From IMG/VR virus record IMGVR_UViG_638341086_000015, positions 1 through 46,383 of that record: a DNA stretch of 46,383 bases, one strand, 5' to 3'. Position numbers and translations under genes: made by a program. The notes below the pieces were generated by a model. It made no database searches and was not told where the DNA came from. It worked only from the letters and a program-made list of their open reading frames with translations. The stretch comes from a virus (lineage: Duplodnaviria > Heunggongvirae > Uroviricota > Caudoviricetes). Positions 3,331 through 35,911 of this stretch are shown here, piece after piece; within the stretch, counting starts at the first letter, position 1, and every line of letters begins with the position of its first letter.

Positions 3331-6300
3331 TCAGCTGATACTGATACCTGCTGTGGATTTTTTCATCACCACAACCAGTAAATCACTGATGTACGTTGTC
3401 GGCGTCCAGTTGTTCGCACCGGCCGACGACACATTAAACGTCAGGGTGACATGACCCCGCCCTGCCGGCATATCTATCACCGATGAGAACACCCGGCTGA
3501 CATCCGTTGCCGGTTCATGGAAAATCTCAACCCCGTTCTTCAGCACCTGCAGCTTACAGGTGGAATACCAGTACGACTGCTGATTCGGGCTGTTGAAATT
3601 CTGGTGTTTCGTCCCGCGAAACAGCACCGGGGGAATGATGATCTGCCGGTCGAAGCCCTGGTCATCGTAAACTGTGACGGTTACCGTCCCGCTGGCATAA
3701 CTGTTATTCCGGGGAAAGGCTTTCCCCACCGTCTTCACCAGGTCGCCTTCAATCTGGTTTGCAGACAGTTTCCCTCTGATGACACAGTTCTCGTTAATGG
3801 TGACATTATTGAGCGTGCCGGTATTCGCGGTAATTGCTCCGCTGATATCCGCGTTCCTGGCTGTCAGCTTCCCTTCCGGCGTCAGGGAAAACGTCGGGGG
3901 GTTGCCGGATGACGTGATACTCACCGCAAACAGTCGTTTCAGGAACACGTCGTTCATGAACAGCTGATTCCCCTGCGCCACAAATAACGGCGTGCTGTTG
4001 CCGCTCTCCGGATTTATCATCGCGATACGGTCAGCCAGCAGCAGTATGTTGCTCAGTGGCTGGCCATCAGTATCCTCAATCCCTGCACCAATCCCGGCCA
4101 CATAGGGAATGCCGTCTTTCGTTTTTTGAACCTTCAGCATGTACAGCGCAGCCAGGTCATCATTTGTGTCCTTCTGCACGCGCTGTATCTGCTGTATGGT
4201 GGCGCTCTGGTTCTCCAGTGTTTTACTGACCGTCTGTGTGATTTCATTGCGGGTTTCCGTGATGCTGGTCTTCATCTCCGCCATCTCATCTGCAAGCTGG
4301 CTGTTATCTATCAGTTCCCACAACCCCTGAGCCAGATGCAGTTTTCCTATTTTTTCCCGGAAAAATTCCAGATACCCTTCACCATCATTGCTGGGCTGCC
4401 CGCTGACTTCCACAAACGCAGATTTCCCCACCAGGTTGACGCTGCGCACGTAAAACCAGAAATCCTTCCCAGGCTTAATGTGCGGGCCGGATACACTCCA
4501 CTGACTGCCGGTCCCCAGATAACGGGCAGAGGTTTCCACCTGAGATATGTCTGCGATTTTTGTCTCCGAAAACCAGAACTCAAACTGTACCGTCGGGTCA
4601 TACACCGCAAGACGCGGGACCGCCGTTATCTGAAAATAGCCCGGTGTCAGTTCAATGGTGGCGGGTTTTGCTGGCGCGTTAATCCGGAAGGTGGTGGTGG
4701 CCGGTTCGCCCTGCTGGCCATAACTGTTAATTGCCCTGACCGTCAGGGTGTATTCCCCCGGCGGCAGACCGCTGAAACGGTGCTCTGTATCCGCGGTGAT
4801 GGCGGTGGTCACCAGACGGCTGTCCTGACCGCTTCCACTGGTCAGGCGCAGACTGAAGCGCACGCCCTTCACCACCCGCGGCGTGTCCCATTTCGCCTGT
4901 GCCAGATACTGGCCGTCAGCGGCGCTCACCTCCACCGTCAGGTGCTGCACTGCCGGTGGAATAACGCTGTTCAGGGTGCCTGACTGCGGCTCAAAGCTGG
5001 CCCCGTTATCCACGATGGCTTCTTTTTCCGGTACGTGCTGCACCGCCGTGATGGCAAAGGTGCCGTCCGTGTTTTCCCGGATGGAGACACAGCGGAACAG
5101 GCGACGACGCAGTGACGGCAGGGAGAGTCCCCATACACCGTATGTCTCCACACCATCAGGCAGGGTGCTGACCTGTATCCGGTCCGGCGCGGGGTGTGCA
5201 GTGATGGCCACGCTCACCGGCTTACCGCTGCCGTTAATCAGGTTCACCGTGGCGGCACCGGTCTCCGGCAGGGTCACCTCACGGTCCAGTGTCAGGGTGC
5301 GGCTGGCGGCATCGATGGACAGGATACGTCCGCCGGTCATGGTCCCGGCATAGTCGTTATCACAGATTTCAATAATGTCACCGGGTGTGTGACGCAGCCC
5401 CTGTGACCCGAGCGTGAAATCCACCGTCTGCGTTTCCAGCAGTTCGGTCTTTATCACCCACAGCCCGGCACGGTGGGCCTGACCGCGACTGGTGCANCCG
5501 AACGCATCCATCTTCAGCAGGTTGCGCCCGTAGCGCAGTATGGCTTCCGGGTCTTCCACCAGTTCCGTGGAGGTCTGCCAGCCGTTCTGCGGGTCGGTGT
5601 AATTCACCTCCACCGCCGTGTGGCGGTCCTTCAGGGCGCTGAAGCTGTAGCGAAACCCCACGCCGTTATCATCCACCACCACATCGCTGTTGGTGTACGG
5701 CCACACCACATCCGACTGGCGGTCCTGAACGAACGTCAGCGTCTGGCCGTTCCATACCGGCATACAGCGCATCGCCGAGCAGAAATCACTGAGCACATCC
5801 CATGCCTTACGCTGTTGTGACAGGTACGCATTAAAGGTCATCCGCGNCTCTGTGCCCCCGAAACCATCCGGGACCGTCTGGTCGCAGTACTGCCCGATGG
5901 CATACAGCGCCCACTTGTCCACATCCGCCGCCCCCAGACGTTTTCCCATGCCGTAGCGCGGGTGAGTCAGCATGTCCCACAGGCACCAGGCCGGGTTGTT
6001 GCTGTATGCCGGTTTCAGACTGCCGTCCCAGATACCACTGTACGTGCGTTTTTCCGGGTCATAGTTTGACGGCACCTGGATGATGCGACCGCGGATATGG
6101 TAGTTCACCGTCATCTGCTGGCCGCCGAACTGCTCCGCATCCACCTGCAGCCCCACAATGGCCGTGTTCGGGTAGCACTGTTTCACATCGATGATTTCGG
6201 TGTATGACGACCACAGCGTCTTATTCTGCAGCTGGTCCGGGGTGCTGTCCGCCGTCTCCCTGACCATCCGGATGTTAAAGGGCCGGGGAGGCAGATTCTC

Positions 6301-32923: not shown

Positions 32924-33973
32924 TTACCCGAGCACGCCGGTTGCAAAAGCGTGATCAAGAAAACGAAAAATTAAATCAACCTGGGAACCATGCTTTTCTT
33001 CGAACGCCAGCGGATCCGCATGAAGCTCGTTGTGATGCTCCCGACACAGCGGTAGCGTGAAAATATCGTGGGATTTTGTTCCCATTCCACCCTGACCATG
33101 ACCAATCAGATGATGAGGATCGTCCGCTGGCTTACCACAACACGCACACGGCTGTGTCTTTACCCAGCGTGTGTATTTCTCATTTACCCAGAGGCGACGT
33201 TTAGGTCGTTTCATGAAGGATTCCGGAGACTCCGGATCAACGGCAATGCTGACCACCGTCTTTTCCTGTGGTGGGTTCTGTTGCTGGTGGGTGTGAGGCG
33301 GTAGCGCAATATTTTTTGTGCGCTGCTTCAGTATGCTGGTGGCGGTCTGTTCTCCCGGTATGATGTCGCTTTCACGGTATACGGAGCGGATTTTTTCCGC
33401 CGGTAATCCCAGAGAACGACGCGATACTGCCTCAGGTAATGCGTCCACCACCTGATTGCAGACTGCCCACCAGGATAATTCAGCCAGCGATAATTCCCGT
33501 TCCTGTATGCCATTCATTGCGTGGCGGATGACGTCAATCATCCATGCTGACAGGTTTTGTTGAGCAAGTTGCTCAAGTGATTCGGATGTCTGGTCGCGCA
33601 GCTGGTTGTCGCAGTGCCAGCACAACACCATCGCGCCGGTACCGTAACGATGTATGACAGTTTCGCTGTGATGATAATCACCATGAGGCTACTGGCAGGA
33701 TTTAACGTGACGTAATAACCAGTCAGACAGTGCACCAGCGCCACCAGCAGCACGAATCACACGCTCATTGCTGAAAAATGGCAGTAATGATTTATCTTCC
33801 GCCAGCGGCTGGCGAACGGCAGGAACGACCCCGGACGGCAGATTACGCATGCTTTTCGGTTCAGACTCCACCAGCACCCTGCCGCCATGAAATACCCGCA
33901 TGGATTCACGGCCTGGCTTAACGATAACCAGACCGAGTTCCGGTACCAGAACAGGTCGAAGTAATACCCGCAC
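32924..33973 (-). pseudogene. ydfU-like (DUF968) gene interrupted by one in-frame amber (TAG) codon at about 33689-33691
   Basis: ORFs 33689-33973 and 32924-33631 are in the same frame, separated by a single TAG plus 19 sense codons; combined length 349 codons; C-terminal Cys/His-rich region (CACCGKP..HHLIGHGQGG..CREHHNELH). Confidence 0.55.
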
Positions 33974-34253: not shown

Positions 34254-34325
34254 CGGTTGTCTCTGCTGGCGCAGCAGGTGCCAGTTGTTCAGGCTGGCGT
34301 GCGAATTGTAAACCAGAATGCCAGG

Positions 34326-34350
34326 AAAAAACAAAACCCGCCGAAGCGGG
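34326..34350 (-). terminator. Rho-independent terminator at the 3' end of the hok transcript
   Basis: - strand CCCGCTTCGGCGGG followed by TTTTGTTTTTT. Confidence 0.6.
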
Positions 34351-34420
34351 TTAAGTGCGGGTGCGTTGAGGATGCCTGATTCATCAGAGGTGGCGAGGGA
34401 TTTCTCCCCCGCCGGGTCTC

Positions 34421-34576
34421 TTACTCCTCAGGTTCGTAAGCTGTGAAGACAGCGACCTCCGTCTGGCCGGTTCGGACTCGTACCTCGCAGAGGTCTTTCC
34501 TCGTTACCAGTGCCGTCACTATGACGGTTAAACAGATGACGATCAGGGCGATTAACATCGCCTTTTGCTGCTTCAT
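34421..34576 (-). CDS. hok: Hok/Gef-family type I toxin (51 aa, single transmembrane helix)
   Basis: MKQQKAMLIALIVICLTVIVTALVTRKDLCEVRVRTGQTEVAVFTAYEPEE, near-identical in pattern to HokC/Gef. Confidence 0.85.
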   Translation of the reverse strand: MKQQKAMLIALIVICLTVIVTALVTRKDLCEVRVRTGQTEVAVFTAYEPEE

Positions 34577-34633
34577 AGCCTGCTTCTCCTTGCCTTTCGG
34601 CACGTAAGAGGCTAACCTACGTTTGTGAAGCAT
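34421..34633 (-). CDS. mok: Mok-like modulator frame (same frame as hok, N-terminally extended)
   Basis: 70-aa ORF co-terminal with hok, the arrangement recalled for chromosomal mokC/hokC. Confidence 0.6.
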   Translation of the reverse strand: MLHKRRLASYVPKGKEKQAMKQQKAMLIALIVICLTVIVTALVTRKDLCEVRVRTGQTEVAVFTAYEPEE

Positions 34634-34821
34634 AGATTGGGCCTCAGATTAATGTTAAGCGTCTTGCAGGACGCGTAATGTTAACTGGGGCTTTTCTCTG
34701 TCTGCCTTACGGTGGCATGCCCGAGGCAGACAGCCTCAAGCACCCGCAGCAATTCTACTTAACTCTCGCTTTACCGCAAACCGTTTTTACCCGATATGGG
34801 AATTCCCATATCGTAATGAAT

Positions 34822-34926
34822 TCAGTTCCCTAGTCGATCCATCAAAAACACAACCAGGCAGTAAACGCCCACAACAGCAACAACAGCCAGCGCACCTTCC
34901 ATTGCCAGTGATATATCATCCGACAT
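34822..34926 (-). CDS. Candidate 34-aa hydrophobic peptide upstream of hok/mok
   Basis: Not in ORF track. Read by eye: AAGGAGG 4-5 nt before ATG; product MSDDISLAMEGALAVVAVVGVYCLVVFLMDRLGN. Confidence 0.35.
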   Translation of the reverse strand: MSDDISLAMEGALAVVAVVGVYCLVVFLMDRLGN

Positions 34927-34967
34927 ATTCCCTCCTTTGGTGTTAATCCCGGCGAACGTTTTTACCC

Positions 34968-35045
34968 TCACCGACAAATAACATATACTAAAAAAGCGAT
35001 AGCCATAGCAACGCCTGTAATTGCAAATGCTTCAGGCCAGTTCAT
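34968..35045 (-). CDS. Candidate 25-aa hydrophobic peptide, start overlapping the stop of the upstream gene (ATGA)
   Basis: Not in ORF track. AGGAGG 7 nt before ATG; product MNWPEAFAITGVAMAIAFLVYVICR. Confidence 0.35.
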   Translation of the reverse strand: MNWPEAFAITGVAMAIAFLVYVICR

Positions 35046-35911
35046 TGGCGCACCTCCTGCGGCGGTTCTGGTAGAGGCATCCAGTGTGATGGTATCCACG
35101 ACGCACCAGGTATTATCCACCCATCATTAGCGTCAGGATGCCCCGGGATGTAAGTCGCCCATTTCATTCGCCAGTCACCTTTCCTGCCAAAATCCCTGGC
35201 AACAAGAACGGCTGTTTTGGTATCCGGCATTCGCTCACTACAGCTTATCCAACTATCCGGAGTTACCGGATAGTTGCCCGATAGTGCATTCTGCTCCAGT
35301 GATGCTTTTACAAACCACGCTGCCTGAACTATAACGCCATGAATCCAGCGCAAATCAGCATCGCGATCTTTCTTTTTCATCTTTTCGCCACTTAAGGCCT
35401 TGCTTATGTGGCTGCGTGCCAGGTCTTCATGTAATTCCTTCGCCTCCTCAATGGTGAAACCACCAGGCAGAAGAGCCGGAGTTACCGGAGAGCTGGTTGA
35501 CGCTTCCGGGATTTTCCGAAAATTATTGGTTGACGAATCTTTATTTTCCCGAAAGTTTCCGGACTGAAACATGGCTTCGCGGCAATCGTTCCAGCCTGTA
35601 GCGTATGCAGCCGCTTTGCTGCTGCCTTCAACTGGCGCATCCTGCCAATACATTTCTTCCGGCACTATCGGCGCTGGAGGGGCGGCAAATAGATATCCGC
35701 CAAAGTCAGGAAGCTCTCTAATGGCCTGTACAAATTTTTGTTTGCCTACGTCAACCCCTAATGGGTAATGAGCTATAATCTTTGCCACCGGCTCTGCTTC
35801 CAGCGATGCCAGCGCAATCCGTGCCAGTTCCATTTGTTCACCACGGGTAAGCCCGTTTTCAAGCGGATTTTTAATGAACAATTCAATACGTTCTTTGGTA
35901 ATAGTGGTCAT
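35042..35911 (-). CDS. Phage protein with C-terminal DUF551-like domain
   Basis: 289 aa; Trp/Pro-rich C-terminus (WIIPGASWIPSHWMPLPEPP); domain assignment from recall. Confidence 0.5.
   Translation of the reverse strand: MTTITKERIELFIKNPLENGLTRGEQMELARIALASLEAEPVAKIIAHYPLGVDVGKQKFVQAIRELPDFGGYLFAAPPAPIVPEEMYWQDAPVEGSSKAAAYATGWNDCREAMFQSGNFRENKDSSTNNFRKIPEASTSSPVTPALLPGGFTIEEAKELHEDLARSHISKALSGEKMKKKDRDADLRWIHGVIVQAAWFVKASLEQNALSGNYPVTPDSWISCSERMPDTKTAVLVARDFGRKGDWRMKWATYIPGHPDANDGWIIPGASWIPSHWMPLPEPPQEVRQ

Follow-up and report, generated by a model that had tools for sequence, protein, structure and literature searches.

Two short hydrophobic open reading frames upstream of a hok/mok/sok locus in a lambdoid prophage of Escherichia coli

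Two small genes between DUF551 and hok

The virus record IMGVR_UViG_638341086_000015, whose 46,383 nucleotides (nt) are hereafter called the window, carries at positions 34,326 to 35,045 a hok/mok/sok type I toxin locus preceded by two short hydrophobic open reading frames (ORFs). The genes concerned, DUF551, ORF1, ORF2 and mok/hok, are all on the minus strand, in the interval from the replication genes to Q of an Escherichia coli lambdoid prophage. A first-pass annotation of this DNA had described same-strand ORFs of 25 and 34 codons, each with an AGGAGG-type ribosome-binding site (RBS), the first overlapping the stop codon of the DUF551 gene as ATGA, and all these features were found (Table 1). 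It had also taken both ORFs to be unannotated. This holds for ORF1 in every record that we inspected, and protein collections contain only a few 'hypothetical' entries for it, but it does not hold for ORF2, which is present in RefSeq as a hypothetical protein and in prophage Sp6 of strain Sakai, with equal gene order, as ECs_5710. The two ORFs differ in their association: ORF1 goes with the DUF551/Ea22-type gene, and ORF2 with the hok unit. We consider this gene-level picture of the locus to be very probably correct.

ORF1 belongs to a family of peptides that start with M-x-WPEAFA, continue with one hydrophobic helix and end in ...ICRWG, and that are mostly 27 amino acids (aa) long (22-34 aa in total). 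The window copy has the N-terminal M-x-W-P-E-A-F-A and the helix, and is without the C-terminal ICRW[GRW], as it ends after ICR, two codons early (TGG -> TGA). This early-ending allele is a minority form: 6 of 120 viral loci have it, as do 106 E. coli genome records with a match of at least 99% identity. The 120 loci were retrieved from viral contigs with a degenerate DNA pattern for M-x-WPEAFA and encode about 40 distinct peptides, and the motif almost always opens a short single-helix ORF there. In bulk bacterial genomes, used as a control, the pattern falls mostly inside long or non-hydrophobic ORFs, and the matches listed comprise about 4 plausible members out of 120 as well as chance matches in unrelated high-GC genomes. 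With tblastn, ORF1 is matched over its full length in 97 phage records, including Shiga toxin (Stx) phages, Klebsiella phages, the P1-like SJ46 and others.

Several lines of evidence speak for a coding function of ORF1. The ratio of nonsynonymous to synonymous substitution rates (dN/dS) is 0.19-0.22 among 24 distinct 27-codon DNA variants, and stop codons close the two remaining forward frames in every one of them. In the codons outside the search pattern, entropy reaches 1.18 at the third position, as compared to 0.55 and 0.49 at positions 1 and 2. Both ORF1 and ORF2 stay conserved as peptides where the DNA stops aligning; in phage 933W, for instance, there is hardly any alignment to the window from DUF551 to hokW, yet this interval encodes MTWPEAFANVGTVMAVVLVVYSICRWR right before the hokW promoter. 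The ATGA start-on-stop junction is present in 116 of the 120 loci, and a GGAGG-containing junction like that at the ORF1 start recurs in most related loci. In most cases DUF551 precedes ORF1, in others an Ead/Ea22-like, DUF669 or unclassified gene. Of the ORF1 variants, 13 are accompanied by hok and 21 were seen solely in loci that lack it. We regard ORF1 as a genuine gene of a widespread and almost never annotated family under purifying selection, a new micropeptide family attached to DUF551/Ea22-type genes and independent of hok.

We also considered a fusion of ORF1 to DUF551 by -1 frameshift, as the 25 codons upstream of ORF1 are free of stops in its frame. Inspection by eye of the last 75 nt revealed no slippery heptamer, and reinitiation fits ORF1 better, given the strong RBS and the ATGA junction.

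Possible distant relatives of ORF1 occur outside E. coli phages, in Sphingobium jiangsuense (L185, MGWPEAFAAVGICACVAATLIVFARSL), in a Pseudobdellovibrionaceae metagenome-assembled genome (L156, a 65-aa form) and in Klebsiella phage ST11-VIM1phi8.3 (L507, MDWPTAFCIVGCAFAIAWLFRS, adjoining an integrase). A 431-bp contig of Xanthomonas pisi DSM 18956 (L171) encodes a peptide identical to the 933W copy and is probably contamination by an E. coli phage. In P1-like plasmid prophages such as SJ46 (L004, L016, L024, L033), an ORF of 86-110 aa lies between DUF551 and ORF1, a 77-aa ORF follows ORF1, and a 40-aa hydrophobic ORF (MSKVNVLIFSAIVGFGFTAGVQIYI...) is found about 280 nt downstream; hok is absent from these loci.

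ORF2 starts 41 nt after the end of ORF1. Its family has the core ...ALA[VI].AV..[VI]YCL...L[MT][DE][RH]L.., a length of 29-34 aa and an RBS of its own, and the window copy, which we assign to type A, fits this description. A second form, type B (MLVLKCALAIAAVMAIYCLAVVLMDRLSD), uses a GTG start behind AGGAG. The two types share 12 of their last 25 residues and are homologous (z = 13.5). Values of dN/dS are 0.18 within type A, 0.35 within type B and 0.31 between the two, and in all 31 DNA variants the frame is intact and the other frames are closed. The conservation of the frames in related prophages, on which the first-pass annotation had made its proposal depend, was thus observed for both ORFs, together with purifying selection. 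The ORF2 family is narrow and centred on E. coli, with 7 cluster representatives among 1.84 billion. A tblastn search of phages with ORF2 gave no match, probably owing to low-complexity masking or limited sensitivity, as sensitive blastn later recovered unannotated type B copies in the viable phages Evi and Tritos, where ORF2 and hok stand behind a divergently oriented gene.

The expected translation signal for ORF2 had already been published. In ribosome profiling of enterohaemorrhagic E. coli (EHEC) Sakai grown in lysogeny broth (LB), ORF2, under the name XECs145, had an RNA value of 79 and a footprint value of 346 reads per kilobase per million (RPKM), with a ribosomal coverage value of 4.35 and a coverage of 0.99 (Hücker et al. 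2017, PMC5597208). The signal decreased in brain heart infusion (BHI) and was absent under stress, and the product was predicted to reside in the inner membrane (PMC5597208). This signal indicates that ORF2 is translated in uninduced lysogens, and good translation in growing lysogens makes a strong, Hok-like toxicity of ORF2 unlikely. The supplements of the same study, which covered only ORFs of at least 30 aa, gave no match to ORF1 motifs (PMC5597208). ORF2 is therefore a genuine, translated and uncharacterised gene that was already on record; earlier work seems not to have remarked on its linkage to hok.

This linkage is tight. The hok mRNA start follows the ORF2 stop at a fixed distance in 131 of 135 ORF2 loci, namely 75-76 nt for type A (76 nt in the window) and 42 nt for type B; the remaining four consist of three contig ends and one decayed hok. 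The sequences flanking the ORF2-hok pair fall into 9 upstream and 14 downstream clusters, which places the recombination joints outside the pair. Such fixed spacing despite varied flanks indicates that ORF2 and hok move as one unit. In type B, 9 nt separate the stop codon from the hok -35 box, and ORF2 transcripts must therefore enter hok.

Small hydrophobic peptides upstream of hok are not limited to ORF2. Among hok loci sampled only by a 16-mer at the 5' end of the hok mRNA, the nearest upstream ORF was of the ORF1 type in 20, of the ORF2 type in about 23, and a third peptide in about 17. The latter is a hydrophobic 32-aa peptide, MEKVDVLILIFGYINALFLGVFMAVMCIEYWR, with variants MEK[VI]DVLIL[IM]FG[YH]INALFLGVFMAVMCIEYWR (for example in L294, L304, L313 and about 115 others); it ends 89 nt upstream of the hok mRNA start, and hok follows in 114 of 115 loci. 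One variant is a longer 59-aa ORF with two helices, and the 32-aa form may hence be a fragment. When a uniform criterion was applied (a small hydrophobic ORF with an RBS, ending at most 100 nt upstream of the start), such ORFs preceded 51 of 99 hok starts (52%) and 4 of 1,003 ordinary gene starts in the same loci (0.4%), a difference whose P-value is inflated by the shared ancestry of the sampled hok loci. At least three mutually dissimilar peptide families contribute to the enrichment, and none resembles Hok. A recent survey of Hok (bioRxiv 10.1101/2025.08.07.668861) reported an enrichment in prophages and did not mention upstream ORFs.

Neither ORF1 nor ORF2 had a meaningful family in Pfam, NCBIfam or PHROGs, where we obtained only a spurious PTR2 match and a weak match to phrog_38566. 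The K-12 prophages Qin and CPS-53 contain no member of either family, which leaves both without a link to curated K-12 small proteins.

The hok/mok/sok module and its surroundings

The first-pass annotation had recognised a Hok/Gef toxin, a Mok frame ending at the same stop codon and a terminator on the 3' side, and each of these elements is present (Table 1). The toxin matches PF01848 with an E-value of 1.5e-22 (79.4 bits, cut-off 22) and phrog_251 with an E-value of 1.3e-32. The hok promoter is identical in 933W hokW, and the equivalent site in Evi was picked up by a consensus promoter scan. On the strand of the hok mRNA, Rfam model RF01794 matches over its full length (34745..34571) with 117.5 bits, the gathering score being 59. 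Although this model is named 'sok antitoxin', its match to the mRNA strand means that it describes the hok leader and the Sok target, not the antisense RNA; the strand of an RF01794 match should not be taken as the strand of Sok. Both the minimum-energy and the centroid fold of the mRNA pair its 5' GGGUGCUUGAGG (34745-34734) with its 3' CCUCAACGCACCC (34371-34359), with z = -7.4, and this predicted pairing would correspond to the fold-back inhibition element typical of the family.

A Sok-like antisense RNA had been expected on the plus strand around the mok start, at about 34580-34700. By transferring the position of annotated sokW from 933W, we could narrow the predicted RNA to about 34625-34697. 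In its fold (-33.7 kcal/mol, z = -5.3), an unpaired 5' tail covers the mok start and is followed by a long hairpin (34639-34693) and a U run. The putative Sok promoter scores under the threshold of the consensus promoter scan. A weak isrK-like Rfam match (34331-34412, minus strand; 27 bits, gathering score 50) covers the 3' stem-loops of hok and the terminator. We rejected an isrK identity; the match most likely reflects a generic structural resemblance of the hok 3' hairpins.

Overall, the module appears from its sequence to be complete and ordinary, an already known system. For its toxicity and its control by Sok we would rely on the close homologue hokW-sokW, for which others have demonstrated the toxicity of HokW and its neutralisation by sokW RNA (Takada et al. 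2021, PMC8621323). In that work the sokW promoter was inactivated by mutation, mitomycin C made sokW vanish and HokW appear in a RecA-dependent manner, and phage release was about 2x higher with the hokW-sokW locus than without it (PMC8621323).

Table 1. Features of the locus, in window coordinates.
Feature	Position	Strand	Description	Basis
DUF551 (EaA/Ea22-type) gene	35911..35042	-	289 aa, ends ...CAGGAGGTGCGCCAATGA; RBS of ORF1 inside its last codons	PF04448, E 6.7e-19
RBS of ORF1	35058-35053	-	AGGAGG, 7 nt before ATG, within DUF551 coding sequence	Read from sequence
ORF1	35045..34968	-	25 codons, MNWPEAFAITGVAMAIAFLVYVICR, predicted single-helix micropeptide	ATG (35045-35043) overlaps DUF551 TGA (35044-35042) as ATGA (35045-35042)
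Direct repeat, copy 1	34957..34967	-	11 nt, GGGTAAAAACG; upstream edge of the 175-nt ORF2 segment	Exact
RBS of ORF2	34936-34931	-	AGGAGG, 4 nt before ATG	Read from sequence
ORF2	34926..34822	-	34 codons, MSDDISLAMEGALAVVAVVGVYCLVVFLMDRLGN, predicted single-helix micropeptide, type A	WP_001278454.1 / ECs_5710 / XECs145
Palindrome	34792..34813		22 nt, perfect, CGATATGGGAATTCCCATATCG	Between ORF2 stop and hok -35 box
Direct repeat, copy 2	34782..34792	-	11 nt, GGGTAAAAACG; adjoins hok -35 box on its upstream side	Exact
hok promoter, putative	34752..34779	-	-35 TTGCGG (34779-34774), spacer 16 nt, -10 TAGAAT (34757-34752)	Read from sequence
hok mRNA, full length, predicted	34329..34745	-	About 417 nt, start about 34745	RF01794 leader match and predicted fold
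mok frame	34633..34421	-	70 codons, in frame and co-terminal with hok	Layout as annotated mokW
hok	34576..34421	-	51 codons, 51 aa, HokD/HokW type	PF01848, phrog_251, RefSeq HokD
hok terminator, predicted	34325..34352	-	Intrinsic; stem 34352-34335 and T run	Terminator prediction
Sok promoter, putative	34590..34618	+	-35 TTGCCT (34590-34595), spacer 17 nt, -10 TAACCT (34613-34618)	Stretch identical around sokW
Sok antisense RNA, predicted	34625..34697 (end approximate)	+	About 71-73 nt	Position transferred from 933W sokW annotation

The locus had been placed in the nin region, and it does lie between the replication genes and DUF968-RusA-Q, in the nin-equivalent part of a Qin/Sp6-like lambdoid prophage of E. 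coli. An 851-nt stretch is 100% identical in many complete E. coli genomes, O111 and O121 strains among them, and at least 80% of it is present in 658 of 5,426 genomes. In O111 strain 11128 the order is repressor, Cro, YdaT, replication-region genes, DUF551, ORF2, hokD, a hypothetical gene, DUF968, RusA and Q, and the ORF sizes in the window agree with it.

Two short sequence elements surround ORF2. The copies of the 11-nt direct repeat are 175 nt apart and bracket the ORF2 segment. The 22-nt palindrome is kept in type A ORF2 loci and is also found upstream of hok where the upstream ORF is a different, non-hydrophobic one; it has no T run on its 3' side and may serve as an operator or processing site or form an RNA hairpin.

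In the DUF968 (ydfU-like) gene of the window (32924-33973, minus strand), codon 95 is an in-frame TGA, as opposed to TGG in the otherwise near-identical O111 copy. The gene is consequently split into ORFs of 94 aa and 235 aa and is probably a pseudogene or the result of a sequencing error. The same TGG -> TGA change is seen in the window copy of ORF1.

Possible roles of the two peptides

We propose that the stretch is probably a mosaic of three co-oriented pieces within the early-right operon of a Qin/Sp6-like lambdoid prophage. In the first piece, ribosomes that terminate at the DUF551 TGA, or that bind the embedded AGGAGG, would start ORF1 at the overlapping ATG by translational coupling. 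The product would be a single-pass inner-membrane peptide of 25-27 aa, probably N-out and C-in as suggested by its acidic N-terminus and basic C-terminus. The ORF1 family would thus trail DUF551, Ead/Ea22-like and other early genes in many phages, without a tie to hok; our best guess is that it is a general phage accessory membrane peptide.

The second piece would be the repeat-bounded 175-nt segment with ORF2, predicted to encode a 34-aa inner-membrane peptide from its own AGGAGG and to be inherited with hok as one unit. As there is no terminator between ORF2 and hok, an ORF2 transcript would have to run through the hok promoter into the leader, and the two would then be co-transcribed. The third piece is the hok module, which would work like R1 hok/sok and hokW-sokW: the 5' end of a stable mRNA would pair with its 3' end and so hold the molecule closed, while Sok would pair with the mok start region and block translation of Mok and thereby the coupled translation of Hok. 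Loss of Sok, for example upon prophage induction, would lead to production of Hok and damage to the inner membrane. Since the locus is co-oriented with early transcription, read-through on induction may oppose the Sok promoter and titrate Sok. From the gene order in the 933W record, we infer that the early-left hok locus of that phage also points with early transcription.

Within this mosaic, our best guess for ORF2 is a modulating and not a toxic action in the Hok pathway, although we hold such a functional role only tentatively. Several points weigh against the reading as a whole. The window ORF1, in which the conserved C-terminal WG is missing, may be impaired. Because the first 8 codons of ORF1 were fixed by the search pattern, the diversity of its family is under-sampled and its N-terminal conservation overstated. 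The Sakai ribosome profiling reads could be shared by near-identical prophage copies. No ORF2 promoter passes the consensus scan. Finally, the ORF2-hok linkage may only reflect a physical proximity of 42-76 nt in a narrow family.

Indeed, it is nearly an even chance, if somewhat short of it, that the two peptides represent independent accessory genes (morons) functionally unconnected to hok, and that ORF2 and hok were acquired together in a single event and lie too near each other for frequent separation. Hok can work without ORF2: 933W/Sp5 has none, and the cloned hokW-sokW acts as a complete toxin-antitoxin pair (PMC8621323). Likewise, type B remnants in which an RBS is followed by ATG GAT CAC CTT TCT GAT TGA (MDHLSD, 6 codons), with the hydrophobic body deleted, adjoin an intact hok promoter, which indicates that ORF2 is dispensable for hok. 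Conversely, ORF2 can persist alone. In an IMG/VR contig (L089, about position 6168, minus strand), ORF1 and ORF2 are intact, the latter with 4 substitutions, while the hok leader and most of hok are deleted down to a short, still recognisable remnant. Among the 135 loci, it is the sole instance in which ORF2 occurs without a functional hok. The narrowness of the ORF2 family and the clear occurrence of ORF1 without hok are also in line with independence. A single capture accounts less well for a spacing that is fixed in two lineages sharing so few of their C-terminal residues while the flanks on both sides recombine freely, and for small hydrophobic ORFs from at least three unrelated families preceding about half of the hok starts.

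Less probable, but still a serious possibility, is that ORF2, and perhaps other hok-adjacent peptides, form a third component of the module that damps leaky Hok or sets the threshold or timing of its action on induction; in a variant of this explanation, translation or transcription of ORF2 acts in cis on the hok promoter or on Sok. The strict linkage and fixed spacing, the forced entry of type B transcripts into hok, the translation of ORF2 in uninduced lysogens, where Hok must stay silent, and the enrichment of small hydrophobic ORFs upstream of hok all favour it, as does the situation in Evi and Tritos, where ORF2 and hok behind a divergent gene make up a stand-alone unit. On the other hand, loci of the hokW type manage without ORF2, and the promoter scan provides no ORF2 promoter. 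Extending the modulator reading of ORF2 further, one may speculate that prophage hok modules are often three-part, with a constitutive single-helix micropeptide, either ORF2 or an unrelated analogue, as the partner of Hok; we consider this doubtful. Such a partner would, for example, neutralise leaky Hok in the lysogen or set the timing of membrane permeabilisation after induction.

It is very improbable that ORF1, ORF2 or both are type I toxins with undetected antisense RNAs, which would make the locus a toxin gene cluster. Both peptides are short, hydrophobic and single-helix like Ibs, Ldr, TisB and Zor, and two promoter-like sites lie on the opposite strand (34902-34929 and 34961-34989). 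However, the three promoter-like sites of the region do not differ significantly from shuffled sequences (1.0 +/- 0.9), no plus-strand terminator follows them, and neither peptide resembles Hok or matches a toxin family in Pfam, NCBIfam or PHROGs. In addition, ORF1 starts on the preceding stop and so is without a separate 5' untranslated region, and the efficient translation of ORF2 in healthy, growing cells sets it apart from type I toxins, which are silent.

Least credible of all is that the small ORFs are chance frames or decayed hok duplicates without a functional product: their extreme shortness, the failure of annotation pipelines to call ORF1 and its truncated window allele would fit this, but dN/dS of 0.2 to 0.35, third-position bias, frames that are intact in all variants while the alternatives are closed, peptide conservation beyond DNA alignability and the profiling support for ORF2 all argue for coding. 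Apart from the 11-nt repeat, the ORF2 segment has no DNA or peptide similarity to the hok locus, and for this reason we rejected ORF2 as a decayed hok duplicate; no peptide is Hok-like.

The hok/sok part of the locus is therefore textbook and adds nothing new. What ORF1 adds is a widespread phage micropeptide family that is invisible to annotation pipelines, clearly under selection and coupled to early genes of the DUF551/Ea22 type; in lambda and Stx phages, a connection of Ea22 with the lysis-lysogeny decision has been reported. What ORF2 adds is that small membrane peptides precede prophage hok far more often than other genes, and that one of them is translated in uninduced EHEC lysogens. 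This association of peptides with hok is new but modest. If ORF2 did modulate Hok, it would change the view of how prophage type I toxins are controlled by putting a protein-level layer on an RNA-controlled toxin, and it would bear on the induction and release of Stx phages, which HokW reportedly enhances about two-fold.

Comparison with known systems

The closest known system is hokW-mokW-sokW of the Stx2 phages 933W/Sp5, which shares about 93% DNA identity with the window over promoter, leader, mok, hok and Sok region, has the same 70- and 51-codon co-terminal frames, and is identical over the Sok promoter stretch. Both loci lie in lambdoid prophages, are co-oriented with early transcription and have an ORF1-family peptide upstream. 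In contrast to the window, 933W has no ORF2, and its ORF1 is directly joined to a single copy of the 11-nt repeat at the hok promoter. The hokW locus is in the early-left arm beside attR, whereas that of the window is nin-equivalent. The C-termini of the toxins (FTAYEPEE in the window, FVDYESEK in HokW) and the terminators differ too.

As to ORF2, XECs145/ECs_5710 of Sakai Sp6 equals it except for one residue (V16I) and stands in the same ORF1-ORF2-mok/hok-DUF968-RusA-Q arrangement. Hücker et al. 2017 (PMC5597208) called a longer 54-aa frame and reported translation only; they neither noted the linkage to hok nor assigned a function.

The hokD gene (relF) of K-12 prophage Qin bears the same RefSeq name, HokD, as the window toxin, and the downstream order of hok, a rem-like gene, DUF968 (ydfU) and Q is alike. 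Qin differs in that relBE is directly upstream of hokD, with relE ending 71 nt before the hokD start, and in having no ORF1 or ORF2 family member. We take K-12 hokD to be without leader, mok and Sok, while the hok locus of the window carries the complete regulatory apparatus.

The reference system, hok/sok (parB) of plasmid R1, resembles the window in its fold-back pairing, mok-hok coupling, cis-antisense Sok with 5' tail and terminator hairpin, and PF01848 toxin. It is plasmid-borne and acts in post-segregational killing, whereas the window copy is in a prophage. We know of no upstream membrane peptide gene described for R1 hok/sok. At the level of the toxins, HokW is 44% identical to R1 Hok (PMC8621323).

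ORF1 and ORF2 differ from other type I toxins (Ibs, Ldr, TisB, ShoB, Zor, DinQ) in the features that define these, namely an own promoter with a long 5' untranslated region, a dedicated antisense or divergent small RNA and a silent mRNA. They can also be compared with small inner-membrane proteins such as MgtS and AcrZ and with phage accessory membrane peptides. While they show no sequence similarity to a curated family in the libraries searched, ORF1 and ORF2 are like such characterised small membrane proteins in their size of 25-34 aa, their one helix, their strong RBS and their expression from a mobile element.

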